Below, one piece after another: positions 1 to 37,488 of a stretch of DNA of 64,000 bases. This DNA is from a virus. Lineage: Duplodnaviria > Caudoviricetes. The stretch is taken from IMG/VR virus record IMGVR_UViG_3300032302_000065. One strand, 5' to 3'. The position numbers and the translations under genes are program-made. The notes below the pieces were generated by a model. That model did no database searches. It was not told where the DNA came from and was given only the letters and a program-made list of their open reading frames with translations. Every line of letters begins with the position of its first letter. Position 1 is the stretch's first letter.

Positions 1-131
1 AACAAACTATTGATAGCGCATAATGTCACATATGAACCAATCAAATAAAAAGATAGCCAAGCAAATAACGCACCTAGCAAAACGCTCATAGTCATTTTTT
101 CTGGCGCAACAGTAAACGGTCCAAGTCTCAT
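1..131 (-). CDS. partial small membrane protein (runs off window edge)
   Basis: AAGGAG RBS then ATG at 131; MRLGPFTVAPEKMTMSVLLGALFAWLSFYLIGSYVTLCAINSLF... hydrophobic; not in ORF track. Confidence 0.6.
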   Translation of the reverse strand, partial: MRLGPFTVAPEKMTMSVLLGALFAWLSFYLIGSYVTLCAINSL

Positions 132-159
132 ATAAAAACTCCTTTATTGATGTTTATAC

Positions 160-188
160 AGTATAACACAACAGTCATGGCATGTCAA
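160..188 (-). promoter_or_regulatory. sigma70-type early promoter
   Basis: minus strand TTGACA-N17-TATACT (TG-extended -10). Confidence 0.7.
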
Positions 189-496
189 AATGTATTTAAC
201 GATGGCTCATATTCGGCAATCAATTCACGTTCACGCTGGTGTGCGGGTTTACGTCCACGGATCACTTCAATAACTTCATATTGCCAGTTTGCGCCAGCCA
301 ACTCACGCAATGCATTACACATTGCCCAATTTTTGTTTTCGCACTTAGCACGGCTCACATGTTTTTGCCAACGAACTTTAACAGAACGCAAATAGGCTTG
401 ACCTTGTGCAACAGTCAAGCCAACATATGTATCGCCAGTATCAACGCATGTAACTTTGTACAGTACATGGTTTCTGTCACAACGTTTTTTTCTCAT
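185..496 (-). CDS. small GIY-YIG family nuclease
   Basis: VLYKVTCVDTGDTYVGLT..R...H..E...I......LN pattern. Confidence 0.65.
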   Translation of the reverse strand: MRKKRCDRNHVLYKVTCVDTGDTYVGLTVAQGQAYLRSVKVRWQKHVSRAKCENKNWAMCNALRELAGANWQYEVIEVIRGRKPAHQRERELIAEYEPSLNTF

Positions 497-507
497 TACC
501 ATACTTA

Positions 508-536
508 CAGTATAACAAATCCGGAGAATTTGTCAA
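508..536 (-). promoter_or_regulatory. sigma70-type early promoter
   Basis: minus strand TTGACA-N17-TATACT. Confidence 0.7.
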
Positions 537-549
537 GGAATATCCACAT

Positions 550-567
550 TGTTGCAAAAAAACAACA
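550..567. promoter_or_regulatory. palindromic operator TGTTG-N8-CAACA
   Basis: TGTTGCAAAAAAACAACA; motif recurs at 44961, 47877, 47899 just upstream of early promoters. Confidence 0.55.
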
Positions 568-620
568 AAATCCCCCTATGAAGTGTTGTGTTTTTGACAC
601 ATTTTTAAGACTTGGATTAC

Positions 621-628
621 CATAAATA
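621..628 (+). promoter_or_regulatory. T4-type late promoter variant (CATAAATA)
   Basis: one mismatch to TATAAATA, about 30 nt upstream of first plus-strand gene. Confidence 0.45.
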
Positions 629-659
629 ATGTTATCAAGTCCTAGGGAGGATAATAATC

Positions 660-809
660 ATGGATATAGTAGAGATACTTTTAAAAGCATGGCCAGTATT
701 TTTAGCATTTATCACTTTAGTCATAGTTTTGGCTAAAATGGACGTGCGAATCGGAGTATTAGAAGAAAAAGTCAAATCATTATTTGATTTACATAACAAA
801 GGAAAATAA
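660..809 (+). CDS. small membrane protein (49 aa; TM + coiled coil)
   Basis: GGGAGG RBS; MDIVEILLKAWPVFLAFITLVIVLAKMDVRIGVLEEKVKSLFDLHNKGK; not in ORF track. Confidence 0.7.
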   Translation: MDIVEILLKAWPVFLAFITLVIVLAKMDVRIGVLEEKVKSLFDLHNKGK

Positions 810-810
810 A

Positions 811-1161
811 ATGGCAGAAAAAACAGCAGAACAAGCACATGAAAAAGGTGCGTTTATAGAGAAATTATTATTTGCATTATTACCTCTATTAGTTGGTTCA
901 GTTGGATATTTAATTCAAGCATTAGGTGTTATTCAACATGATGTAACCATTCTGAATCAAAAAGTGAGTTTAGTTGTTACTACAGATAACAAGCAGGCTA
1001 GCAATAGCGGTGCTGAATTGGCACGTGAAAAACTACGTCAAGATTTAGAAAAAGAAATTCAAAAGAATCGTGACGCTATTATGGAGAATAGAACACACAT
1101 TGCTATTCTTGAAGACAGAGCAGGTGTAACGAAAAAAATTGGACCAATGAAAGAAAACTAA
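811..1161 (+). CDS. membrane-anchored coiled-coil protein
   Basis: one TM (LLFALLPLLVGSVGYLI) then coiled coil; ATG at 811 after AAGGA. Confidence 0.7.
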   Translation: MAEKTAEQAHEKGAFIEKLLFALLPLLVGSVGYLIQALGVIQHDVTILNQKVSLVVTTDNKQASNSGAELAREKLRQDLEKEIQKNRDAIMENRTHIAILEDRAGVTKKIGPMKEN

Positions 1162-1162
1162 A

Positions 1163-1720
1163 ATGGCAGAAGTAGTATTACAACAGAAACCATTGTCACG
1201 TAGCGAACGTGAGGCACATATTAAAGATAAAGCTGGATGGGTAATTACCGTCTTAGCCGCTTTACTTGCAATTAACACTTATATATCAAATGGTAACAGC
1301 AGTAAAGTTTTAAATAACACAATCCGAGCAAATGATACTTGGGCATTTTATCAAGCTAAGAGTATTAAACAAACTCTAGCAGAAATGCGTATGGATGATG
1401 CTATTGCACAAAAAGATTTTAAAAAGGCTGAAGCACTAAAGGCTAAAATTGATAAGTATGAATCTGATCCAACTACGGGTGAAGGTAAAAAAGAATTGTT
1501 TATTAAAGCAAAAGCACTTGAAGCTGAACGTGATGAAATTCGCAAATCAAGTCCTTGGTTAACATTTGCGGGTTCTGCATTTCAAATTGCAATTGTTTTA
1601 TTAACGGCAAGCATTTTAGCAGTCAGCATGTCATTGTATTTCGCTAGTATTGTTGTTGGAATTTTTGCCTCAGTACTAATGAGTCAGGGTCTGTGGCTTT
1701 GGCTTCCTATCGCTTTGTAA
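1163..1720 (+). CDS. DUF4337-like membrane protein
   Basis: N-terminal TM, WAFYQAKSIKQ motif, two C-terminal TMs. Confidence 0.7.
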   Translation: MAEVVLQQKPLSRSEREAHIKDKAGWVITVLAALLAINTYISNGNSSKVLNNTIRANDTWAFYQAKSIKQTLAEMRMDDAIAQKDFKKAEALKAKIDKYESDPTTGEGKKELFIKAKALEAERDEIRKSSPWLTFAGSAFQIAIVLLTASILAVSMSLYFASIVVGIFASVLMSQGLWLWLPIAL

Positions 1721-1926
1721 AGTACATATCAATTACATTATGTTTTGTTATTTTAACTGGAAGTGCTGAGATAAAAGAAAGTCCTAAAAAACAGGATGAA
1801 GTAAAAACCTGCACCAAATGGAAATGGGCAGGTGATGTTTTTAATCGAACAGTCTGGTGTGTGGAATGGACCATAAAAAATTGTTCTCAGAGATTGCATA
1901 AAGAAATATGTAAAACTGGTGGTTAA
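1693..1926 (+). CDS. small exported Cys/Trp-rich protein
   Basis: signal-like N-terminus; 4 Cys in the mature part. Confidence 0.5.
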   Translation: MALASYRFVKYISITLCFVILTGSAEIKESPKKQDEVKTCTKWKWAGDVFNRTVWCVEWTIKNCSQRLHKEICKTGG

Positions 1927-1931
1927 TAATC

Positions 1932-2549
1932 ATGGACCCAATTACAATCGGACTTGCATTCTCAGCCGCACAGAGTGCAGTCAGTCATATCAAGCAGGCA
2001 ATCGCATTAGGCAAAGACGTTAATAGTCTTGTCGGGCAATTCAGCAAATTCTTTGAATCGTCAGATGCTATTCATCGTGAAAAAACAAAACAAAGAGCAA
2101 AGGCGCAAAGCCTAGGTAAAACTGATGCTGAGTTAGGTAAAGAAGCACTTCAAATTGCTATGCATAGTGATGCATTACGTGAGCAAGAACGTGAACTTAA
2201 GGATATGATTATCTGGGAATTGGGTAAACCTCAAATTTGGGAACAGATGATTAAAGAGCGCACACGTTTATTTAAAGAACGTGCAGAAGCAGAAGCGGTC
2301 GCTGAGAAAAAAAGATTAGAGGATAAAAAGAAAATGGCAGACATGTTTATGTTTGCAATGTATTTCATTGCAGGATCAATTATTTTATTTGCAATTGCCA
2401 TGGGCGGAATTGGTTTATACGGAGCAATGGAAGAAAAAAGAATCTATGAAGAAAAAGTTGCTAAACGAAATTTACTTATACGACAGCAACAAAAAGAACG
2501 TGATACGAAAGAGCGTGAAGCAAGAGATAAAGCAATTGGAGGAGGCTAA
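1932..2549 (+). CDS. hypothetical coiled-coil membrane protein
   Basis: MDPITIGLAFSAA... N-terminus, coiled coil, single TM. Confidence 0.7.
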   Translation: MDPITIGLAFSAAQSAVSHIKQAIALGKDVNSLVGQFSKFFESSDAIHREKTKQRAKAQSLGKTDAELGKEALQIAMHSDALREQERELKDMIIWELGKPQIWEQMIKERTRLFKERAEAEAVAEKKRLEDKKKMADMFMFAMYFIAGSIILFAIAMGGIGLYGAMEEKRIYEEKVAKRNLLIRQQQKERDTKEREARDKAIGGG

Positions 2550-2552
2550 CTT

Positions 2553-2666
2553 ATGTACTTTAATATAATTATTACATTTAACGATTTATTATTTTTATTC
2601 TGTATGACTCCGTTACTTGCTGTCTTTTGGGTTATGTTTAAAGATTGGTTAAAGGATAGAAAATGA
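2553..2666 (+). CDS. small membrane peptide (37 aa)
   Basis: GGAGG RBS; MYFNIIITFNDLLFLFCMTPLLAVFWVMFKDWLKDRK; ATGA overlap with next gene. Confidence 0.5.
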   Translation: MYFNIIITFNDLLFLFCMTPLLAVFWVMFKDWLKDRK

Positions 2667-3427
2667 AAACATATCGTTCTATTTTTGTGAGTGATGTACA
2701 TTTAGGTACCAAAGATAGTCAGGCTGATAAGTTAAATAACTTTTTAAAGCATAACAGTTGTGACACACTATATCTAGTGGGTGATATTATTGATGCATGG
2801 CGCATACAACAAAACAAATGGCGATGGAAACAAAGCCACACTAATGTGGTACGTAGAGTATTGGGTCACGCAAAACGTGGCACTAGAGTTGTTTATATAG
2901 CAGGGAATCACGATGAGTTTCTTAGACCCATGATACCATATGGTTTTAGTTTTGGTCTTATCGAAATTCACAATCAAATAGAACATATAGGTGCAGATGG
3001 CAAACACTATTTAGTTACACATGGTGACTTGTTTGATGGCATTACTAGACTTGCACCATGGTTGAGTTTTTTAGGAGATAAAGCATATGATTTCATTCTT
3101 TCGCTCAATAGCAAGTTCAATTGGATACGTCATCGTTTTGGTTTTGGGTATTTTAGTCTTAGTCAATATCTCAAACATAGAGTAAAAAAGGCTGTAGATT
3201 TTATATTTCAATTTGAAAAAAATCTAGCCGCTTACTGTATCAAACGAGGTTTTGATGGGGTAATATGCGGACACATACACCACGCAGAGATTAAAGAAAT
3301 CAATGGTGTTATGTATATGAATGATGGCGATTGGGTTGAAAGTTGTACAGCACTTGTAGAACATCATGACGGCCGCTGGGAAATTATAACTTGGACTAAG
3401 GAGAAAGACAATGATGAAACTATGTGA
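2663..3427 (+). CDS. plcP: PlcP-type metallophosphoesterase (phospholipase C; usually auto-annotated UDP-2,3-diacylglucosamine hydrolase)
   Basis: SDVHLG, GDIID, GNHDE, HGDLFD, CGHIH, GDWVESCTA motifs; GNHD rather than LpxH GNRD. Confidence 0.8.
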   Translation: MKTYRSIFVSDVHLGTKDSQADKLNNFLKHNSCDTLYLVGDIIDAWRIQQNKWRWKQSHTNVVRRVLGHAKRGTRVVYIAGNHDEFLRPMIPYGFSFGLIEIHNQIEHIGADGKHYLVTHGDLFDGITRLAPWLSFLGDKAYDFILSLNSKFNWIRHRFGFGYFSLSQYLKHRVKKAVDFIFQFEKNLAAYCIKRGFDGVICGHIHHAEIKEINGVMYMNDGDWVESCTALVEHHDGRWEIITWTKEKDNDETM

Positions 3428-4124
3428 TAAAATCACTATTGTTGTGCCTTGTAAAAATGAAGAAAATTATATTCATCATCTACTAGATTCACTACGCTCA
3501 CAAAACATAGGCGACACTAGAGTAATCATTGCCGACTGTTCAACCGATGCCACTAGACAAGTTATTAAGAATAACAGTATTGGACTGAATGTCGAAATTA
3601 TTGATGGTGGTCCAGTATCTATTGCTAAGAACAACGGAGCAAAACTAGTCACTACTCCGTACATTCTGTTTATCGATGCTGATGTTAGATTCTTTAAAGA
3701 TACAGTTATTAGAGATGCTGTCAACAAGATGGAATTAAAGAAACTGCATCTTGTTGGACTAAACATTAAATGTTACGACAAAGACATACGAGCAAAGATT
3801 GGATTTACAGCATTTAATGTAATCAATCACACACTAAAATTCTTTAGCCCATTTGCTGTAGGTGCATTCATGCTGACACGTAAAGATAAGTTTGAAGAGT
3901 ATGGTGGGTTTCCCGAAAACTTATTAACATCTGAAGACTACTTTTTATCTAAGAAATATAGTCCTAGAAAATTTAAGATTATTCGACATCACTTTGGACA
4001 AGATAGCCGTAGATTTAAAAAGATGGGCTACTTAGGTATGGGCAAATATCTTGTTAAAAATTTTGTCAATCGCAATAACAAAAAATATTGGGAAAGTTTA
4101 TACCATAATAGATACTGGAATTAA
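3411..4124 (+). CDS. glycosyltransferase family 2
   Basis: IVVPCKNEE, IIADCSTD, AKNNGA, FIDAD (DxD), GAFML, SED, SRR motifs. Confidence 0.9.
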   Translation: MMKLCDKITIVVPCKNEENYIHHLLDSLRSQNIGDTRVIIADCSTDATRQVIKNNSIGLNVEIIDGGPVSIAKNNGAKLVTTPYILFIDADVRFFKDTVIRDAVNKMELKKLHLVGLNIKCYDKDIRAKIGFTAFNVINHTLKFFSPFAVGAFMLTRKDKFEEYGGFPENLLTSEDYFLSKKYSPRKFKIIRHHFGQDSRRFKKMGYLGMGKYLVKNFVNRNNKKYWESLYHNRYWN

Positions 4125-4549
4125 ACTTTTGGTGCAGGATTTCTCTTCTTAGGCGCACTAGTTGTAGGCGCTTTAGTAGTTTGTTGTTGTTTTGGTTTAG
4201 CAGTTTTCTTTGCTGGCGCTTTGTGTTTAGCAATAGATTTTTCTACTGCATCAACTTTACCATCTTTATTCAAATCTCGTTCATCTGCTTCAGTTTTTAC
4301 TGGAGTTGCAACTGGAGTTTGTTTAGGCTGAGTTACAATTTCTGCGCTAATAACTTTACCCATAACTGGTGCAGTAGTCTCTACAATATTTTTTTCAATA
4401 TGTTCAGATTTTACATTAGGGTTTAGATATGGACATTTTGATGGGTCACCGCCATGAGATGTTTCTTCTTTAGCTTTTTTTACTGCAAAGTGATGTGCAA
4501 TAAATGCCAAAACTGCGGCAACGATAATTAGTCCAATAATAATTTCCAT
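4121..4549 (-). CDS. membrane-anchored K/A/P-rich protein with EF-hand-like loop
   Basis: N-terminal TM; DLNKDGKVDAVE; basic tail. Confidence 0.6.
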   Translation of the reverse strand: MEIIIGLIIVAAVLAFIAHHFAVKKAKEETSHGGDPSKCPYLNPNVKSEHIEKNIVETTAPVMGKVISAEIVTQPKQTPVATPVKTEADERDLNKDGKVDAVEKSIAKHKAPAKKTAKPKQQQTTKAPTTSAPKKRNPAPKV

Positions 4550-4560
4550 GATTTCTTCCT

Positions 4561-5181
4561 TTAAGTTAAAATTTCAATCGCATGATTGTAATGATTAATT
4601 CTTTCATCTAAGCCAAGATAACCGCCATTGATGCGTTTTGTCATTGTTTTAATGTCTCCAATATCTGCTAGTTCATTTAGTCTAGCCGCAGACCAGAACC
4701 AACAAGCAGAATGAATAGCATATTCCGATTCAACTAACAAATCAGGATTCTCAACTAATACATTGCTTTCGAACAATGATTGTGAGCATTTAGTGTAATT
4801 GTTTTTTCCTGTAATTTGCACAATACCTCTACCACGGAAGTACCAACCTTCTCCAGAGGCTTCATCTCCATTACCCATACGATTTGCATATACACGATTC
4901 GCAATCATTTCTGGTCTACGTTCGTATTGTTTTGCTACTGCTTCAGTAGGAAAATATTTCTTAAAAGTACCAACTAAACCTTTTGCAGAGTAATTTAAAT
5001 TCTCTTGAAGGGTAGTAAACCCACCAGATTCGTGCCCACATTGAGCCATGAATGCGGCAACTCTAGCAGAAGTGTCTATATCGTATTCTGGCAATATATT
5101 TAATAAATTGTTATACCACTCATCAAAGTTTTTAACTTTTGGTATCAATTGTTTTACTGCATTTTCCGTAAAAAATTCCAT
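4561..5181 (-). CDS. glycoside hydrolase family 19 endolysin
   Basis: AAFMAQCGHESGGF..LQENLNYS, FRGRGIVQITGKNNY, TKRINGG. Confidence 0.9.
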   Translation of the reverse strand: MEFFTENAVKQLIPKVKNFDEWYNNLLNILPEYDIDTSARVAAFMAQCGHESGGFTTLQENLNYSAKGLVGTFKKYFPTEAVAKQYERRPEMIANRVYANRMGNGDEASGEGWYFRGRGIVQITGKNNYTKCSQSLFESNVLVENPDLLVESEYAIHSACWFWSAARLNELADIGDIKTMTKRINGGYLGLDERINHYNHAIEILT

Positions 5182-5221
5182 TGCTATCTCCTATGATAAT
5201 CATAGGAGTATTTAGCATAGT

Positions 5222-5947
5222 TTAATCCCAAAGTGCTTGGTAGTACTTACCGAACAAACGAAATCCGTTTTGAATTCGTGTCTCAACAACTTTCATGCCT
5301 TCATAGTCACACTTGTATGTGTTATTGGGACCATCTGTCATTCGAAACAATTTAGCATCTTTCTTAGGAACTTCATTGCCATCTTTATCGACAGGTAGCC
5401 AAAGCAAGTCATGTTCACCAGAACGAAACTCTTCTTCCCAAGAACCATCATTCTTGCAAGTGAATGCAAAAATCATTTCATCTAATACCCAGTCCCAACG
5501 CTTGAAATGATTTTCGTCAGTATCCCATTCATTTTCTTTTGCTGGCGCTGAAGTTGACTTTAGTTCTTCTGGCACATCTTCATCATCAACATTGGGGGCG
5601 CCATGCTTTGTTGCTTGCAATTGTTTCAGCATAGGTAAGACAATCATTGCAAGTGTGTGATCCATTGACCATGTATCGTACTTGTCAATCTTGATATATG
5701 ATTTGCGACTACGCTTAGACTCTATCCATTGACACAGTTTCAATAGCCAAGTTTCTGGCGGATTCTTTGAGTCTACAATTTCTTCTTTTGTGGTGCCGTG
5801 AGAAAGCCAAGTGCCAAAATTATGCACCCACCTAGGTTTGCTTTCCATATCATATTCGTCCTTTACTGGCTTTGCCCAAAAACAAAGTGCTTCAGCAATC
5901 TGATATGGTCCAACCCAATTCTTATAGGGTCCGATATAAACTTTCAT
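5222..5947 (-). CDS. conserved phage hypothetical protein
   Basis: 241 aa ORF, DTWSMDHTLA...RWDWVLDEMIFAF, GFRLFGKYYQALWD. Confidence 0.75.
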   Translation of the reverse strand: MKVYIGPYKNWVGPYQIAEALCFWAKPVKDEYDMESKPRWVHNFGTWLSHGTTKEEIVDSKNPPETWLLKLCQWIESKRSRKSYIKIDKYDTWSMDHTLAMIVLPMLKQLQATKHGAPNVDDEDVPEELKSTSAPAKENEWDTDENHFKRWDWVLDEMIFAFTCKNDGSWEEEFRSGEHDLLWLPVDKDGNEVPKKDAKLFRMTDGPNNTYKCDYEGMKVVETRIQNGFRLFGKYYQALWD

Positions 5948-6246
5948 TTCAATTTCTTTCTAATGTGTGGACACGGATTCGGTCTAGTGCGAGTTAGTTC
6001 TCCTCCAGCAAAAGGATCGTCATCTATTAACACACCGAACTCTTTTTCTATATAGTACTTACCCATCGCTTTGATACATTGATCCATCAAACTGTTAGAA
6101 CCAGAAGAATCGTCTTCTGCCCAAAAGCAAATTGGAGACCTACCCCATGTACGATATCTTAAAACATCGTGGAAAATTTTTCTATGTTTTTTATTACTAG
6201 GGTCAAACGTTTCGAACACTCTGCCGAACTGTTGAATCTTGCTCAT
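5944..6246 (-). CDS. hypothetical protein
   Basis: ORF coupled to neighbours. Confidence 0.6.
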   Translation of the reverse strand: MSKIQQFGRVFETFDPSNKKHRKIFHDVLRYRTWGRSPICFWAEDDSSGSNSLMDQCIKAMGKYYIEKEFGVLIDDDPFAGGELTRTRPNPCPHIRKKLK

Positions 6247-6382
6247 TACTTTCACTTTCTATCATAATTAAAAGTCGCTTTGATTCTTTACGAACCTCAT
6301 CTGTTACTGACCAACCAAAACCTTCTGGATGCAATAACTCTTTCAAGAAGTGTATAACTTCATTTTCAGTTTTCGCTTTCAT
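6203..6382 (-). CDS. small hypothetical protein (59 aa)
   Basis: MKAKTENEVIHFLKELLHPEGFGWSVTDEVRKESKRLL...; fills gap; not in ORF track. Confidence 0.55.
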   Translation of the reverse strand: MKAKTENEVIHFLKELLHPEGFGWSVTDEVRKESKRLLIMIESESNEQDSTVRQSVRNV

Positions 6383-6599
6383 TCGTCACCTTCACGAATA
6401 AACTGTTGACGGCAAAATCTTCAGGCATTCTCTCAACAATCTTTGTGAAGTGATATGAATCTGGATAGTGTCGTAGAACACTCAAAGCACGTTGACGAAT
6501 GTACTTTGGTACTTTGGGTGTTACTTTTGGGTTCAACAAATCTAAAAGCATTTGATGCCCACAACGCAACGCACGATATCTTTCATCAGGTAGCGTCAT
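6366..6599 (-). CDS. hypothetical protein
   Basis: MTLPDERYRAL...TPKVPKYIRQRA...LRHYP. Confidence 0.65.
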   Translation of the reverse strand: MTLPDERYRALRCGHQMLLDLLNPKVTPKVPKYIRQRALSVLRHYPDSYHFTKIVERMPEDFAVNSLFVKVTNESEN

Positions 6600-7071
6600 A
6601 ATCATTCTCGCTAATATGTTCTGCCATTGTTGTGAAAAACGTTTTAACTTTTAATTCATCATTCCATACTCTTGCGTAGTCATTGTCTTTATCGCACAAT
6701 GCAAGTGCTTCTTCTTTAGTCACGACACGATGTGACACGATAGTTTCGCCTAAGTGTTCTTGCGAAAACTCTTTGGCTTCTTCCATAGTGACAGTATCAA
6801 GTGCCCAATCAGCTTTGTCTTTACCATATCTATCTGTGCCGACAGGAACTTCTACCATGTAGCGTTCACGGAACATAGACACCGTTTCAACAAGAACCCA
6901 TTGTGTTTCAATTTTTTTCATAGTCCAACTTCCATCTTTGTTATCAATCCATTCAATACTGTCGCCAGTTTGCCAACCAGTTCCCTCTAGTATATCATCA
7001 TTTAGGGGAAGAATCAAGTCACCAGTTTCTGGGTCTTCTTCCAATGAAATTGTCCAAGTTTTGTTTTCCAT
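6586..7071 (-). CDS. AbrB/MazE-like DNA-binding domain protein
   Basis: N-terminal DLILPLNDDILEGTGWQTGDSIEW swapped-hairpin pattern; GGAG RBS and upstream TTGAC..TATAAT promoter. Confidence 0.6.
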   Translation of the reverse strand: MENKTWTISLEEDPETGDLILPLNDDILEGTGWQTGDSIEWIDNKDGSWTMKKIETQWVLVETVSMFRERYMVEVPVGTDRYGKDKADWALDTVTMEEAKEFSQEHLGETIVSHRVVTKEEALALCDKDNDYARVWNDELKVKTFFTTMAEHISENDYDAT

Positions 7072-7121
7072 ATGCACTCCTTAAGCGAATACATTCATTA
7101 TAAATGGGGTTTGACGGAAAG

Positions 7122-7415
7122 TCAAGCAATGAGCATTCTTACCAAACCAATGGTATCTATGGTTGTTAGCAGTAGATAGTTAGCCAACATGCCAAAAGAT
7201 TTCCTAGTCCAACTAGCCCAAGCATACAAAGCACAGCCAAGAATCCAGACAGGATAAAGAGCAAGAAGCGGAGGGGTGGGGACTGTGACTGCCATAGTAA
7301 TACTACAACCAATACTAATAGCCCAAGCAAACAACTCAACAGCAAAGCGAATTCGGTTAGACTTAAAGTCATCTTTAATCCATTCTATAGTAGGGCGAAA
7401 CAAATCAATAATCAT
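7122..7415 (-). CDS. 3-TM membrane protein
   Basis: three hydrophobic segments. Confidence 0.7.
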   Translation of the reverse strand: MIIDLFRPTIEWIKDDFKSNRIRFAVELFAWAISIGCSITMAVTVPTPPLLALYPVWILGCALYAWASWTRKSFGMLANYLLLTTIDTIGLVRMLIA

Positions 7416-7416
7416 A

Positions 7417-8235
7417 TCAATCCAAGTTAAATAATTCTGGATGTGTCTTTGAAAAATATAGCCTTAAAATATTCCAATGTTCAAACAATTCAATCGATTG
7501 TCGTTCAACAACCATTCTTTTTATGCCATATAATGATTCTAAAACTTTACTAAAATCATTGATCTGATTTTTATAAACATCATATTCGTATGGACGACTA
7601 TACACTTTATATTCTTTCAATTGAAGGAATGTAGAAAACAATCTTTCAACAATAAACGGAAACATATTGAGATTTGGATCTCTGCTATAGTTTGCACTAC
7701 CATGATAAATCTCAGCATCTTCTCCTGTCAATGCTTCAAGTTTTTGTTTAATGTCATTCACAAAAGACAAGTACTCCAACCAAAATTTTTTAGTTGCAAC
7801 AAAGTAACTGCAATAACATGTAGCGTCCGTCATAACTGAATTAAGAACAGAAGTATCATATCCACCAGCAACAAATGCAGAATGAACAATTTTTTTAATT
7901 CCAGGATGAAAATAATCTCCCTGTTCCCAAACACTTACTGTTAGTGCATTTTGTACTCTAGCATGATTAAAAATATAAACATCAAAATTTGGATTTTCAT
8001 CAATCGACTTTTTAATTTCTGATGCACCATATCGCATTTTGCTTTGCCAGCGAGGACCAAAGACACCCCAAGCATCCAAATCATCCACATGACCCTCATC
8101 AATAATACGATTGAACGAATGAAACTCACGTAATTCTGGACGCTCATTTGATGTGTTATCAAAAGGTGTTAGCAAAGGATCGACTAGGGGGATTTGTTTG
8201 TCCTCAAAACAAATTTGAAAAATTTTGTAGTTCAA
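7417..8235 (-). CDS. putative glycosyltransferase-related protein (DUF4422-like)
   Basis: ELREF, WGVFGPRW, C-terminal FIVERLFSTFL. Confidence 0.45.
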   Translation of the reverse strand: MNYKIFQICFEDKQIPLVDPLLTPFDNTSNERPELREFHSFNRIIDEGHVDDLDAWGVFGPRWQSKMRYGASEIKKSIDENPNFDVYIFNHARVQNALTVSVWEQGDYFHPGIKKIVHSAFVAGGYDTSVLNSVMTDATCYCSYFVATKKFWLEYLSFVNDIKQKLEALTGEDAEIYHGSANYSRDPNLNMFPFIVERLFSTFLQLKEYKVYSRPYEYDVYKNQINDFSKVLESLYGIKRMVVERQSIELFEHWNILRLYFSKTHPELFNLD

Positions 8236-8957
8236 TCTGACACTCCATTACCATTAGGAGCGATATTTCCTTGCACTCCAATTTTTGAAATTTTTTGAAT
8301 TAAGTCTTCTCTTAAGTGCGAGAATAGTAAATGCTCAATGTCAATATATCCGCCATCAGTCAATCTTTTATTCATATCAGCAAACATGTTTCGATATACT
8401 TGTGTAATTTCTGGAAATAATTCAGAATCAAAACTCCAAAGTCTACTCATATACTGAAAGATAACATTGCCCGTTACTGCTGGCGTGAATTGACTAGTAA
8501 ATGGTCCACGAATTACAATTTTACCTTTTGCATTATAATGCGTATCATAATTAAAATCATCGTTTAAAACGTATCGACCACTCATTTTAAAAATACGTTT
8601 ATAGTGTTTATAGTCTTCAGTCATATTCATTTGTTCAAACATGGTTCCGAATGTCATTATTTCAGCCATGTTTTTTACGATATCCTGACTGGGAATACTA
8701 AGAATGTGTTTTAAGTGTGGCGATTCACAAAAACTAATGAATGTGAAAATGTGTGGAGATAATTTTTCTTTTTCTTCATCAGATAAATCTTTATCTCCAC
8801 CATCAATAATCATAATGTCTGCTGGACACCTACTTTTAATTGATTTGCACGTTTCGATTGTTTGTTCTAGTCTTTGTTCAGGACTATAAACTCCATGTTT
8901 AGTATGTATTGCAGACGATACTAAAAATAAACTTTCATTCTTTTGGTTTTCTTGCAT
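8232..8957 (-). CDS. putative GT-A-fold glycosyltransferase-like protein
   Basis: FLVSSAI, RLEQTIETCKSI, IMIIDGG, RIFKMSGRY, DIEH. Confidence 0.45.
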   Translation of the reverse strand: MQENQKNESLFLVSSAIHTKHGVYSPEQRLEQTIETCKSIKSRCPADIMIIDGGDKDLSDEEKEKLSPHIFTFISFCESPHLKHILSIPSQDIVKNMAEIMTFGTMFEQMNMTEDYKHYKRIFKMSGRYVLNDDFNYDTHYNAKGKIVIRGPFTSQFTPAVTGNVIFQYMSRLWSFDSELFPEITQVYRNMFADMNKRLTDGGYIDIEHLLFSHLREDLIQKISKIGVQGNIAPNGNGVSD

Positions 8958-9597
8958 TTGGTTTTTTCCTCACAGTTTTAGCGGCAGCTTTTTTCGCAAC
9001 AGGTTTTCGTTTTGGCTTAGCTTCCCCATTCATCATTTCTTCTTTTTTATTCAATCGTTTGAATACCTCTTCTGGTTCCATCCAGATATCTTTGTTCTCT
9101 AGTATAGACTTAATTTCATCGTCTGTCAAGAATCCAGCATATACGCTACGCATGAATCGGTCAGACCACTTACGTTCGTACATAATATTGTCGTACATCT
9201 CACCACCTTTGCCTATAGTACCACCTGAGTAATTGTGGAACATAAACATAGAATGTTCTGAGATTTCAAATCCATGCCCACATAAAAATATCATAGTAGC
9301 CGCAGACATACATGCGCCTTCTACCGATGTGATAATTTTAGCTTCGCATTCTGCCATTACACGCATCAATTGTATAGCAGTAAATAAATTACCACCAGGT
9401 GAGTTGATATGTATTTTAATGATATCAGTATCTGAAGCATTTCTGATAATTTCATACCATTCAACGTAATCTTCCGGAGAAGATATTTCACCAGTCAAGT
9501 ATAGAGTATATAAATGACCTATGGGTTTAGGTTGTCTAGGTTTTTTAGAATCATCTAAGTTAAATATTGATCCCAATTTGTTTTCTTCTTCGTCCAT
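8935..9597 (-). CDS. ClpP-like protease
   Basis: IHINSPGGNL, GACMSAAT (catalytic Ser), FMFHN (His), DIWM. Confidence 0.85.
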   Translation of the reverse strand: MDEEENKLGSIFNLDDSKKPRQPKPIGHLYTLYLTGEISSPEDYVEWYEIIRNASDTDIIKIHINSPGGNLFTAIQLMRVMAECEAKIITSVEGACMSAATMIFLCGHGFEISEHSMFMFHNYSGGTIGKGGEMYDNIMYERKWSDRFMRSVYAGFLTDDEIKSILENKDIWMEPEEVFKRLNKKEEMMNGEAKPKRKPVAKKAAAKTVRKKPNARKPKE

Positions 9598-34594: not shown

Positions 34595-34999
34595 TTATCC
34601 TCTAGTTAGTGCTAATACTTTGTCGATTTGTTCTTGAATTTTTGCTGTGCGATTTGGCCAGTAGATATATTCTTTTTCTGGATTCTTCATCAAGTTGACA
34701 AGTAAAGGCATGATAAGTTGTTCTAATTCTTTTAGATTATTTTTTACATCTGCTATCATGTTTTGACGTTCTGCATCAAGCCCAAGTTTACCTTGATTGT
34801 ATAATGATAGCATTGAATCTAGTTTCTCTTCTACACGTTGTAAAGATTCTGAAGACTGAACCACAGTTTGTTTAACAGCAATTGTATCTTCTAATGTGTT
34901 TGGGTCTGTGATTCTAGTCAACGTTGATTCATCAACTGCACTAAATCCAAAATCATCTTCTTTTCTAAACGCTAGATATTCTGATGGTATTTTGCTCAT
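34595..34999 (-). CDS. conserved hypothetical protein
   Basis: DFGFSAVDE, PLLVNLMKNPEKEYIYWPNR. Confidence 0.75.
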   Translation of the reverse strand: MSKIPSEYLAFRKEDDFGFSAVDESTLTRITDPNTLEDTIAVKQTVVQSSESLQRVEEKLDSMLSLYNQGKLGLDAERQNMIADVKNNLKELEQLIMPLLVNLMKNPEKEYIYWPNRTAKIQEQIDKVLALTRG

Positions 35000-37488
35000 G
35001 CGAAAAAACTCTCCAATGATGAAACACGTTCGGTCTTCCAACCAATTGTGTTTACGATTGTTTTTAATGGCTCAAGATATGCTTTATCAAACTGTGTGTC
35101 GTAGTCGATATATTTTTCTACGCCAAACTCTTTAGGCAAGACTGTAAGAATAGAAAATACATTTTCTTGAATCGGATTCGGAACTTTCATGTAACAGAAT
35201 TTAGTCTTATCACCATCTTGAATAAGTTGGTACTTCTTAGTCAGTTTATACTTTTTCAGAAACGCATTAAACATTATCGCACCACGCACATGCATAGGTG
35301 TGCCTTTTGAATATAGTTCCGTACTACCCATATATTTAGATAGGTCACTAACACCACGTGGAAATGCAATGTCTTCAAATGGAAGAGTTTTGAATTCTTG
35401 TTTGAATGCTTCAACAAAAGATTGAAACTCTTGTTCATTACCATTCATCACAATCTTCAAAGACTCTTTAATCTTCTCACGGCATGACATTGGTGTAGAA
35501 GACTTGACAGCTTCAATGCCCATCATCTTCAACTTTGGCTCTGCAAATTGAACACCCTCAGAATCATACACGTTTAGAATATAACGCTTCTTTGCAGTCC
35601 AGATGCCTTTGTTTGCAATGACCTCACGCTTCATCTGCATCTTCTGGTCAAATGCATTCATGTAGTCTGCTAGTTCTTGGTATGACTTGTCGATGAATGG
35701 TTCGAATTTTTCGATACATGCTTTGTTGACGAAATCAACAATCGTTTCAACTTTCGTTTCACTCTTCGATCCGTAGACCATAGTAACCAGCGGACCAAGA
35801 TTGACGTACACCGAGTCTGTATCTGACGCAATAACATAATCAATATCCTTAGTCTTCAATAGTTTGTTTAGATAACCATTCAACTTCATTTCAATCCATC
35901 GAATGGACAATTGACCAGACAGAGTAATTGCCTCTGCTTGTCGAATGTCAAAGAACCTAAAATATTGATTACCAAGTGCGCCATAAGCGGAGTTCAATTG
36001 TACTTTCTTTGCCAACTGCAAGTTCTTGTACTTTGAAATTTGATTTGATATTTCACGTTTACGTTCTTTATCAGTTTCTTTTTCGTAAGCCTTTTGAGCC
36101 TCAATCATTTTCTTTTTGTACAATGACCGATCATCATACATGCGTTGCATCATAGCAGGCAAGAAGCCTTGCTTGTCACGTTTGAAGTAATGTCCATTGG
36201 CTGCCATGCAATATTCACCAGATGCTTGATATTCGTTGTTCAGCAAATTATCAATAGAGATACTTGTGTGGCGACCTTCAACAATTGTTTCAGGTGAAAC
36301 GTTGTACTGCATAATCAAGTGTGGATACAATGAGTTCAAGTCAAACGACACAACCCATTCGTGCATACCAACGATTGGGTCTTTAACATAAGCGCCAGCA
36401 TACTGTTCATCTTTTGGTGTGCGAACATTCTGCGGTACGACAATCTTATCTTCAATCAATTCATTGTGAATCAAAGTATCCCACATACGTACTTGCGTAA
36501 ACACATCGGTGTAATTAACTTTGGCGTCATATGCAAGTGCAAGTGCCATATCAATCAATTGCATCTTAGCATCAATTCGATCCACAAGTTCAACGTCATG
36601 AATGTTATACTCAATAAACTTTTGAAAGTTTGTTCGGTATAACTGATGCAGACTTTCAACTTCAGAGTAGTCAAGTTTCTTCTCGCCGAGTTCAAGGAAC
36701 GCAATGTGATTAAGACTAAAACTTTCTTGTTGTGAGTAAGTAAATTTCTTGTACAATTCAATGTAATCAAGAATAGCGATACCTACCAAGTCAAATGCTG
36801 TTTGCTGTTTGTTGTGAATTGTAGTTGTACGTTCACCAATTCTACGGAATGGAGATAAACGCTTTGCAGTATTCTCGCCCATGAGTTTGTTGATACGATT
36901 GTGTAGATATGGAATATCAAAGAATTGAATGTTCCAACCAGTCACAATGTCTGGTGATGTTGATTCCCACATGTCAAGGAAACGCATGATAAGATTATTC
37001 TCATCACGACACATCATATATGTTACATCATCACGATAGTTATTAAACTCGCTACAACCAAACACATAGAAGTGTCCCGCTATCTTAAACGTGATGGCAG
37101 TAATTGGCTCAGACGCAGATGCAGGTTCAGGAAAGCCATTTTCAGAACCAACTTCAATGTCAATATTTGCAATTTTAATTTGTTGCGGATCATAATCTAC
37201 TTTGCCTGGATAGGCTTCATTAATATAAACGTATGGGAAGTTTGTTGAGCCATATACTTTGAAGTTATCAACGTCTTCATATCGTTTCATAAACTCAGTA
37301 GCATCACGCATTGTGCCTTGTGATACTGGCGCAACTGATTGTCCATCCAACGTTCTATAGTCACCATCTTTCGATGGTAAATATAGAGTTGGATTGTATT
37401 CAACTTTATCAATAAATTTCTTGCCGTTGTTATATCCACGAACAAGAATATGATTGCCAAGTTTAGAAAAGTGCGTATAAAATTTCAT
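34996..37488 (-). CDS. gp43: family B DNA polymerase
   Basis: DIEV exo I, SFDLNSLYP, KVQLNSAYG, SDTDS, KKRY; uninterrupted. Confidence 0.98.
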   Translation of the reverse strand: MKFYTHFSKLGNHILVRGYNNGKKFIDKVEYNPTLYLPSKDGDYRTLDGQSVAPVSQGTMRDATEFMKRYEDVDNFKVYGSTNFPYVYINEAYPGKVDYDPQQIKIANIDIEVGSENGFPEPASASEPITAITFKIAGHFYVFGCSEFNNYRDDVTYMMCRDENNLIMRFLDMWESTSPDIVTGWNIQFFDIPYLHNRINKLMGENTAKRLSPFRRIGERTTTIHNKQQTAFDLVGIAILDYIELYKKFTYSQQESFSLNHIAFLELGEKKLDYSEVESLHQLYRTNFQKFIEYNIHDVELVDRIDAKMQLIDMALALAYDAKVNYTDVFTQVRMWDTLIHNELIEDKIVVPQNVRTPKDEQYAGAYVKDPIVGMHEWVVSFDLNSLYPHLIMQYNVSPETIVEGRHTSISIDNLLNNEYQASGEYCMAANGHYFKRDKQGFLPAMMQRMYDDRSLYKKKMIEAQKAYEKETDKERKREISNQISKYKNLQLAKKVQLNSAYGALGNQYFRFFDIRQAEAITLSGQLSIRWIEMKLNGYLNKLLKTKDIDYVIASDTDSVYVNLGPLVTMVYGSKSETKVETIVDFVNKACIEKFEPFIDKSYQELADYMNAFDQKMQMKREVIANKGIWTAKKRYILNVYDSEGVQFAEPKLKMMGIEAVKSSTPMSCREKIKESLKIVMNGNEQEFQSFVEAFKQEFKTLPFEDIAFPRGVSDLSKYMGSTELYSKGTPMHVRGAIMFNAFLKKYKLTKKYQLIQDGDKTKFCYMKVPNPIQENVFSILTVLPKEFGVEKYIDYDTQFDKAYLEPLKTIVNTIGWKTERVSSLESFFA

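Follow-up and report, generated by a model that had tools for sequence, protein, structure and literature searches.

The stretch of DNA that we analysed, 64,000 nucleotides in length and hereafter called the window, is phage DNA: it derives from a T4-like aquatic phage, whose T4-type gp43 polymerase shows 53% identity to the polymerases of cyanomyophages. A megablast search of phage records with positions 1-8000 of the window returned no match. Within this region lies a two-gene cassette on the plus strand, which is convergent with two genes on the minus strand. The features of the locus are as follows:

2553..2666, plus strand: uncertain ORF of 37 codons, read from the sequence, which may encode a hydrophobic peptide with one TM-like stretch
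2663..3427, plus strand: intact ORF for a plcP-type metallophosphoesterase of 254 aa, a predicted Mn-dependent phospholipase C
3411..4124, plus strand: intact ORF for a GT2 glycosyltransferase of 237 aa with a GT-A fold, small and either soluble or peripheral; it takes the place of Agt and is a candidate for a diacylglycerol glycosyltransferase
3411..3427, plus strand: 17-nt overlap, with the GT2 start within the end of plcP, seen in the sequence and in the alignment to L003 and L007
4121-4549, minus strand: membrane-anchored protein, convergent with the plcP-GT2 cassette
4561-5181, minus strand: GH19 lysozyme, likewise convergent with the cassette

Both reading frames of the cassette lie exactly where the sequence-only reading had placed them, with no internal stops, and the 17-nt overlap that it described is real. 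An AAGGAG at 3397-3402 precedes the GT2 start. Alignment to the sister phages L003 and L007 revealed that the overlap is the junction of a deletion of about 155 nt, in which the esterase lost its C-terminal tail, a variable part, and the GT2 gene its first codons, along with the spacer between them; since the identical spacing recurs in 13 of the 53 GT2-bearing sister contigs, the overlap is not an assembly error. At the other end of plcP, the TGA of the 37-codon ORF overlaps the plcP ATG as ATGA. The small ORFs and peptides 5' of plcP vary between sister phages and this ORF is, therefore, not established as a gene; a conserved small ORF at this place was dropped as a candidate, the upstream peptides being unlike between phages. 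Two candidates for a fixed upstream partner were also rejected, namely DUF4337, found near plcP in just 18 of the 80 contigs of the clade, and a 205-aa coiled-coil membrane protein, found near it in 7 of these 80; neither was near plcP in any of the distant contigs. The flanks of the cassette are highly variable among phages, and its only constant part is the PlcP-glycosyltransferase pair.

The first gene codes for a calcineurin-like metallophosphoesterase (42.7 bits against Pfam Metallophos; cut-off 21.5) with all its metal-binding motifs intact. Each of the motifs quoted in the sequence-only reading could be recovered in the translation: SDVHLG (residues 10-15), GDIID (40-44), GNHDE (81-85), HGD (120-122), CGHIH (202-206), GDWVESCTA (222-230) and a helical insert, WLSFLGDKAY...VKKAV, at residues 133-178. 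The metal ligands D11, H13, D41, N82, H83, H120, H204 and H206 are invariant across 42 relatives. The calcineurin-like fold with a helical lid insert is shared with LpxH, the UDP-2,3-diacylglucosamine diphosphatase (PDB: 8qk2, 6ph9 and 6pj3); the sequence similarity between the two is weak and spans the first 120 residues (E 2e-4).

By name, the esterase would be an LpxH, with the GT2 changing lipid A or LPS synthesis: JGI and GenBank label its homologues LpxH, the automatic annotation of the clusters of the best representatives offers 'LpxH' names only, its weak top NCBIfam matches are LpxH models, and a viral survey of Lake Baikal lists lpxH as an auxiliary gene (PMC9611531). We nevertheless hold this to be extremely improbable. 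The esterase falls far short of both curated equivalog cut-offs for LpxH, with 44.4 bits against 134 for NF003743 and 32.2 bits against 190 for TIGR01854. In four genomes with both genes (two Pseudomonas, one Chromobacterium and one Limnohabitans) the true LpxH, with 219-338 bits on the LpxH model as against 44 for the esterase, is a separate gene, and the phage esterase finds one match per genome, to a non-LpxH paralogue; this paralogue scores 42-57 bits on the LpxH model in three of the four, and for Chromobacterium no second match is listed. An Azospirillum genome has the paralogue only, and in alphaproteobacterial genomes that contain relatives the LpxH model matches no other gene. In a quick tree of LpxH, phage proteins and uncharacterised cellular homologues, LpxH branches off with an SH-aLRT support of 100 and all phage proteins fall on the PlcP side. 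The esterase also carries a histidine, in GNHD, at the position of the arginine in the LpxH GNRD; GNHD is present in 69 of 72 cellular proteins of the PlcP clade and in 7 of 8 phage ones, as against GNRD in all four true LpxH proteins. This His-versus-Arg signature had been put forward in the sequence-only reading; a tree or HMM comparison was suggested there as well, and those made here set the esterase outside LpxH. The model scores, the discrimination between paralogues, the tree, the GNHD motif and the neighborhoods of the relatives agree in this respect. Accordingly, we assign the esterase on sequence grounds to the PlcP clade and not to LpxH.

The nearest cellular relatives show 50-58% identity to the phage esterase (56-58% for the homologues of Pseudomonas species), which equals or exceeds the 46-51% between the characterised PlcPs (PMC8528852, PMC9239053), the proteins directly aligned being uncharacterised homologues. 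Examination of the 72 nearest cellular loci showed a GT4 gene directly 3' of the plcP homologue at about 24 of them and a fused PlcP-GT4 ORF at one. Other neighbors are a divergent diacylglycerol kinase (15 loci), a polyphosphate kinase (6) and an OlsB-like acyltransferase (5). A GT2 of the phage kind was found beside plcP at none of the 72.

The second gene codes for a protein which, judging by its sequence and its structure model, is a GT2 glycosyltransferase of the GT-A fold and not a GT4/GT-B enzyme such as Agt, with its domains Glyco_transf_4 and Glycos_transf_1; the 64-kb window contains no match to a phage Agt-like GT4 (tblastn, E 1e-5). It scores 71.9 bits against Pfam Glycos_transf_2 (cut-off 23.3). 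Across 26 phage homologues, down to 59% identity, there is no variation in a DxD motif (D89-A-D91), in E175-D176 or in Q197xxR200R201, and we take the QDSRRF motif of the protein to resemble QxxRW. Residues 80-191 also score above the cut-off for the ceramide/diacylglycerol glycosyltransferase family GT21 (PF13506; 29.1 bits against 21.7), which is presumably the family of Pgt. Pgt-type enzymes are larger and membrane-embedded; compared with them by description only, the phage GT2 differs in being small and in having no TM segment. An AlphaFold model, built with the 26 phage homologues, has a pLDDT of 90.5 and displays a GT-A fold of a generic kind: it matches many GT2 structures with Z-scores of 17-20, the best being PcManGT, a polyprenyl-phosphate-type mannosyltransferase (Z 20), with many GT2s within 1-2 Z of it. 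The GT-A part also resembles DPMS (Z 15.6), ArnC (Z 13.8) and GtrB (Z 13.0). None of the structure searches (Foldseek, VIA) identifies the acceptor, and when the GT2 profile was run against PDB sequences, the matches were all of the generic GT2 N-terminal kind.

These structural matches bear on an alternative interpretation, in which the PlcP is genuine and the GT2 modifies a different membrane acceptor, such as polyprenyl phosphate or a lipid-linked precursor, so as to change the LPS or the envelope, with the adjacency of the two genes reflecting a shared envelope role. For it speak PcManGT as the top match, the likeness to DPMS, ArnC and GtrB, and a PHROG hit to GtrB-like O-antigen conversion, which is weak (E 3e-6) and confined to the N-terminus. 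A further point is the setting of the cellular GT2 homologues nearest to the phage enzyme (E 1e-31 to 1e-33), which adjoin a DedA/VTT-LssY_C membrane protein; the DedA family has been implicated in the flipping of lipid carriers and lipids. None of the five genomes searched that carry these homologues has a match to PlcP, and the link between PlcP and this GT2 is thus seen in phages only. On the other hand, the 237-aa protein has no TM-like window and hence no counterpart of the membrane helices at the C-termini of GtrB, DPMS and ArnC, and part of it scores above the cut-off for GT21, a family with ceramide and diacylglycerol as acceptors. Weighing these points along with the gene-neighborhoods of the viral copies, we consider the use of another acceptor unlikely, albeit not negligibly so.

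These gene-neighborhoods were compiled in a new part of this work, which covered 135 distinct PlcP genes of viruses. The adjacent gene codes for a GT2 in 58 and for an Agt-like GT4 in 57 of these, and for both in none. In the phage clade to which the window belongs, plcP is followed by the GT2 in 53 of 80 contigs, by a GT4 in 26 and by both in none, while 80 more distant viral contigs have a GT4 in 45 cases, a GT2 in 14 and neither in 21. Sister phages with an 86-93% identical PlcP contain the Agt-like GT4 at exactly the place of the GT2, and the GT4s of the clade share 37-45% identity with cellular agt genes that adjoin plcP. On the PlcP tree there are at least 20 switches between GT2 and GT4. 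All copies of the GT2 found in viral contigs adjoin PlcP, including three contigs in which the gene order is reversed with the pair still adjacent; both this and the one-for-one exchange at the same slot, with about 20 switches, argue against an acceptor unrelated to the PlcP product. About 11 of 126 evaluable viral PlcPs, that of Pelagibacter phage Mosig among them, lack a neighboring glycosyltransferase. The occurrence of either the one or the other enzyme at the same place, with repeated switching, indicates that the GT2 fills the Agt slot. The earlier suggestion that a GT2 here replaces the usual GT4 Agt is thereby strongly supported.

The cassette is thus comparable to the bacterial PlcP-Agt operons, exemplified by those of Sinorhizobium meliloti (SMc00171), Phaeobacter sp. 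MED193 (MED193_17359), SAR11 HTCC7211 (PB7211_983/PB7211_960) and Pseudomonas aeruginosa (PA3219/PA3218). As in these, the gene of an LpxH-like metallophosphoesterase that carries GNHD is immediately followed, on its own strand, by one for a glycosyltransferase; the sister phages possess the classical GT4 partner. Unlike these, the cassette is found in a lytic-type T4-like phage, its genes overlap by 17 nt, it has no Pho box, and its glycosyltransferase is a GT-A/GT2 enzyme of 237 aa with a predicted inverting mechanism, rather than a retaining GT-B/GT4 enzyme of about 340 aa. There is bacterial precedent for PlcP with glycosyltransferases other than Agt (PMC4796936, PMC9239053): 1) in the arrangements that Sebastian et al. 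2016 number as types 3 and 5, plcP is paired with non-GT4 glycosyltransferases, such as the processive Pgt of Mesorhizobium loti; 2) a diacylglycerol glycosyltransferase lies beside plcP in type Ia methanotrophs. We regard the cassette as a variant of the known PlcP pathway, for whose phage setting we found no publication.

A connection with phosphate is visible among the relatives of the cassette. The plcP gene of Mosig lies beside pstS, which is also present within 5 kb of plcP in 6 of 80 viral contigs. Pho-box-like repeats occur 5' of plcP in 14 of 132 viral upstream regions as against 8 of 319 controls (p = 0.001), mostly at -39 to -57 and some with 2-3 mismatches. The cassette recalls, in this regard, the pstS and phoA genes of cyanomyophages and pelagimyophages, which are host-derived genes of the phosphate regulon in aquatic T4-like phages; it differs from them in that they serve phosphate uptake, whereas the cassette would act on the phosphorus pool of the membrane itself. 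In the window, no Pho-box-like site was found within 300 nt 5' of plcP, where the best match has 5 mismatches in 14 positions; over the full 2.6 kb 5' of plcP the lowest number is 4. The window likewise has no pstS. CTGT repeats at 2600-2626 were rejected as a Pho box, for they have a period of 10 rather than 11, lie inside the 37-codon ORF and show 5 mismatches.

The lack of a Pho box and of pstS in the window would fit a reading in which the enzymology is as proposed and the benefit is other than phosphorus, with the membrane being remodelled against superinfection, for its sensitivity to agents, or for the timing or aid of lysis. In line with this, the cassette is convergent in the window with the GH19 lysozyme and the membrane-anchored protein, a LysM-GH19 gene lies one to two genes 3' of the cassette in sister phages, and published work shows that lipid renovation alters grazing, antibiotic sensitivity and phage receptors (PMC9457565, PMC8528852, PMC9804370). 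Yet the flanks change from phage to phage around the constant pair, and in the relatives the pstS adjacency and the Pho-box-like sites suggest a tie to the phosphate regulon. We also considered, and rejected, control of the cassette by a T4 late promoter: all nine TATAAATA sites are on the minus strand, and the lack of a plus-strand TATAAATA near the cassette argues against a late role in lysis. Taken together, we regard a benefit other than phosphorus as quite unlikely.

We consider it reasonably likely that the cassette is a phage-borne version of the bacterial PlcP-Agt lipid renovation system, directed at the phosphorus of the membrane, by which host phospholipids are probably converted to glycolipids that lack phosphorus. 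The PlcP-type binuclear enzyme would, as its family membership suggests, cleave the phospho-head group off host PE and PG, so that diacylglycerol stays behind in the inner membrane and a phosphoalcohol is set free, which host phosphatases could convert to phosphate. The translationally coupled GT2, probably a peripheral protein with its basic, aromatic C-terminal helical tail and no membrane-spanning segment, may then move a sugar from a nucleotide sugar to the diacylglycerol; we infer this acceptor from sequence, namely from the position and co-occurrence of the gene. Such glycosylation would prevent a build-up of diacylglycerol and keep the membrane intact, as phosphorus-free glycolipid, until lysis. 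Given that GT2s invert and GT4s retain, a beta-linked product is expected, as opposed to the alpha-linked products of Agt. The purpose, which is the least certain step, might be to supply phage DNA synthesis with phosphorus from the membrane where the water is poor in phosphate, i.e. phosphate scavenging rather than envelope change, with an expression that may respond to phosphate; altered envelope properties could be a side effect or an alternative purpose. We found no paper on a PlcP-glycosyltransferase pair in a phage, as the sequence-only reading had surmised for lytic phages, and the papers on Mosig do not mention its plcP gene.

PlcP-mediated lipid renovation is one of the main ways in which bacteria respond to a shortage of phosphate. 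In ocean metagenomes, phosphorus stress is gauged by the abundance of plcP (PMC9457565). More than 8000 public metagenome proteins match the phage esterase, the best 120 listed being 89-95% identical to it. If phages own plcP, it would represent a new class of auxiliary gene, by which infection could take phosphorus from the host membrane for DNA synthesis, with the cell's internal store rather than uptake as the target. The environmental plcP signal may then be partly viral, and surveys that place lpxH under LPS biosynthesis would be misfiling the gene. We tentatively venture, as a bolder proposal that may well not hold, that the GT2 founds a family of diacylglycerol glycosyltransferases linked to PlcP in phages only, which has repeatedly displaced Agt and makes a virus-specific, beta-linked lipid that the host does not, and that the cassettes filed as lpxH amount to a widespread and uncounted sink of membrane phosphorus in lakes and oceans. 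The swapping of an unrelated GT2 with Agt at one slot is in effect a natural experiment, and it points to an uncharacterised glycolipid synthase.

The window is a portion of a T4-like phage genome with a G+C content of about 35%, whose gp43-type DNA polymerase (34996-37488, - strand) is 53-54% identical to the polymerases of marine cyanomyophages; a megablast search with window positions 1-8000 recovered no close DNA-level relative among phage records. Genes on the + strand form a short block at the left end (about 780-4124), the remainder being nearly all on the - strand, and the final two genes of this block overlap by 17 nt:

784-2549, + strand: upstream membrane-protein genes, coding for a 125-aa protein (one TM segment), a DUF4337 protein and a 205-aa coiled-coil protein (one TM segment)
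1163-1720, + strand: the DUF4337 gene among these (102.9 bits)
2663-3427, + strand: plcP-type ORF, 254 aa, Pfam calcineurin-like phosphoesterase above the curated cut-off
3411-4124, + strand: GT2 ORF, 237 aa, Pfam family 2 glycosyltransferase above the curated cut-off

Every esterase motif quoted in an earlier sequence-only reading, which took these genes for a PlcP phospholipase and its glycosyltransferase, is found in the 254-aa ORF, and a possible 37-codon hydrophobic ORF overlaps the plcP start. Convergent to the GT2 gene, with stop codons overlapping by 4 nt, lies the gene for a 142-aa protein (4121-4549, - strand) that has a single membrane helix at its N terminus and a long tail rich in Lys, Pro and Thr. 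This gene comes after that for a 206-aa GH19-type lysozyme (4561-5181, - strand); the two are a candidate lysis pair of an endolysin and a holin-like or anchor-like protein. Further along, a 220-aa ClpP-like serine protease homologue (8935-9597, - strand; 42.7 bits) is encoded amid - strand genes without known function.

With 44 and 32 bits, the esterase falls far short of the cut-offs (134 and 190) set for the NCBIfam LpxH equivalog models, and solved LpxH structures match it weakly, over the first 120 residues only. A prokaryote scan with one genome per species recovered 80 loci in Alpha-, Beta- and Gammaproteobacteria with 50-58% identity to the phage esterase, and five of their genomes (two Pseudomonas and one each of Chromobacterium, Limnohabitans and Azospirillum) were searched whole. 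The phage esterase matches exactly one gene in each. In the Pseudomonas, Chromobacterium and Limnohabitans genomes the LpxH model picks a separate gene with 219-338 bits; the phage-like paralogue scores 42-57 bits, similar to the phage protein, in the four of five genomes that list it, no second hit being listed for Chromobacterium. The Azospirillum genome has the paralogue without a separate LpxH. A maximum-likelihood tree of 84 proteins, obtained by a quick search, separates the four LpxH by a very long branch (support 100) and puts all phage proteins among the paralogues. Of the clade's proteins, 69 of 72 cellular and 7 of 8 phage ones have the GNHD signature on which the sequence-only reading relied; each of the four LpxH has GNRD. 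Model scores, whole-genome paralogue searches, tree and signature thus agree with its choice of PlcP over LpxH, and it is highly improbable that the esterase is an LpxH.

Clustering of neighboring genes was possible for 72 cellular loci. A GT4 gene lies directly 3' of the paralogue gene in about 24 of these and a divergent diacylglycerol kinase gene 5' of it in 15, while polyphosphate kinase adjoins it in six and an OlsB-like acyltransferase in five; this is the neighborhood published for plcP (PMC4796936, PMC9239053, PMC8528852). Characterized PlcPs share 46-51% mutual identity (PMC8528852, PMC9239053), so the phage protein, at 50-58% to its cellular relatives, falls within the span of the family. 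Judged from these relatives and the published identities, the paralogue clade is probably PlcP. One locus, from a Burkholderiales metagenome-assembled genome, codes for a single continuous 635-aa ORF combining PlcP-like and GT4 domains (L027:5962-7869, + strand), a natural fusion that supports functional coupling of the two.

More than 8000 metagenome proteins match the phage esterase, the best 120 listed being 89-95% identical, and the contigs examined were phage-like. We collected 80 viral contigs of the window's own clade (PlcP 86-98% identical to the window's) and 80 distant ones seeded with the protein of Pelagibacter phage Mosig (47-60%). Genes 5' of plcP differ from relative to relative: 18 of the 80 sister contigs have DUF4337 nearby, and no distant contig does. 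Directly 3' of plcP, 53 of the 80 own-clade contigs have the GT2 (64-99% identity), all 26 others that are complete past plcP have a GT4 of 330-340 aa, and the remaining contig ends after plcP; in none of the 80 do GT2 and GT4 occur together. Across its full length, the phage GT4 shares 37-45% identity with cellular GT4 genes adjoining plcP. Of the distant contigs, 45 have a GT4 neighbor and 14 a member of the window's GT2 family; the other 21 have neither, and roughly half of those 21 are cut off. Contigs retrieved with a divergent GT2 query also carry PlcP, and in three (L265:2986-4408, L266 and L267) the order is inverted, GT2 then plcP, with the pair still adjacent. One sister phage has a RimK-like ATP-grasp gene between plcP and GT4 (L146:5895-6785). 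Just 3' of plcP-GT2, two others (L003:9652-13737 and L007:10435-13776) code for an Fe/Mn superoxide dismutase, a large LysM-GH19 protein and iron-sulfur assembly proteins (NifU-like in L003, two IscA-like copies in both), which would be unusual as auxiliary genes.

Across 135 distinct viral PlcP sequences, the partner is GT2 in 58 and GT4 in 57; 11 lack a glycosyltransferase despite room for one and nine are unjudgeable. The survey thus recovers the plcP-GT2 pairing widely in viral metagenomes, and the proposal that GT2 stands in place of the usual GT4 is upheld by the Agt-like GT4 in the same slot of sister phages. A FastTree phylogeny of viral PlcP shows at least 20 changes of partner type, compared with at least 30 (mean 39) when the labels are shuffled. 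Two unrelated glycosyltransferases therefore fill the same slot and have been exchanged many times, and the simplest reading is that they perform the same job. In bacteria, the GT4 glycosylates the diacylglycerol left by PlcP.

An AlphaFold model of GT2, from an alignment of 26 phage homologues, has a GT-A fold (pLDDT 90.5); D89-x-D91, E175-D176 and Q197-x-x-R-R are invariant in these homologues down to 59% identity. No membrane-spanning segment was found in the 237 residues, the last 40 of which form basic, aromatic helices. Structure searches recover many GT2 enzymes at like scores (PcManGT, Z 20; K4CP, TarS, WrtF, SpsA, cellulose and hyaluronan synthases), none of which points to one acceptor. 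Pfam GT21 matches residues 80-191 only (29.1 bits; cut-off 21.7), and the best NCBIfam match, the small TIGR04283 family, is far under its cut-off. Full-length cellular homologues of 245-285 aa occur in nine of 401 sampled Pseudomonadota genomes (E 1e-18 to 1e-33); the five genomes with the best (E 1e-31 to 1e-33) yielded no PlcP match. In six of seven loci examined from the nine, the neighbor of the homologue is a DedA/VTT membrane protein, in many cases with a fused LssY_C domain. In bacterial loci L280-L286 (e.g. L280:4641-6660) the ~245-aa homologue and DedA/VTT-LssY_C form a conserved pair, beside rplY in several genomes, that appears to be uncharacterized. The GT2 family thus looks lipid-associated, and among the viral contigs and cellular loci compared its link to PlcP is found in phages only. 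That GT2 uses a different lipid acceptor is rather unlikely; we infer that it acts on diacylglycerol. GT2 enzymes are inverting and GT4 enzymes retaining, so the GT2 product should be beta-linked, unlike the alpha-linked product of Agt.

Relative to sister phages the window lacks ~155 nt at the plcP/GT2 junction, comprising the variable polar C-terminal tail of PlcP, the intervening spacer and the opening codons of GT2. The PlcP catalytic core stops short of this deletion, and GT2 starts at an ATG inside the plcP end, preceded by AAGGAG, with the same overlap spacing in 13 sister contigs. No T4-type late promoter was found on the + strand near the cassette; a sigma-70-like match at 594-623 is a consensus hit only.

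Of 132 distinct regions 5' of viral plcP, 14 contain Pho-box-like direct repeats (such as CTGTAAT-N4-CTGTAAT and TTGTCAC-N4-TTGTCAT; examples are viral contigs L125, L126, L128, L243, L121 and L209), usually between -39 and -57. They are rarer in control windows (8 of 319; p = 0.001), and the window has none upstream of plcP. The pstS gene adjoins plcP in Mosig, is no more than 5 kb away in 6 of 80 distant contigs, and is absent from the window. Most likely, PlcP would strip host PE and PG of their phospho-head groups, and GT2 would then glycosylate the diacylglycerol so formed, freeing phosphorus while keeping the membrane intact; that the same chemistry instead serves exclusion or lysis is distinctly unlikely. 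No description of a phage PlcP was found in the literature searched, including pelagimyophage papers, and a Lake Baikal virus survey names the gene lpxH and assigns it to LPS biosynthesis (PMC9611531). What is new here is the known PlcP pathway in viral form, with a non-orthologous glycosyltransferase.
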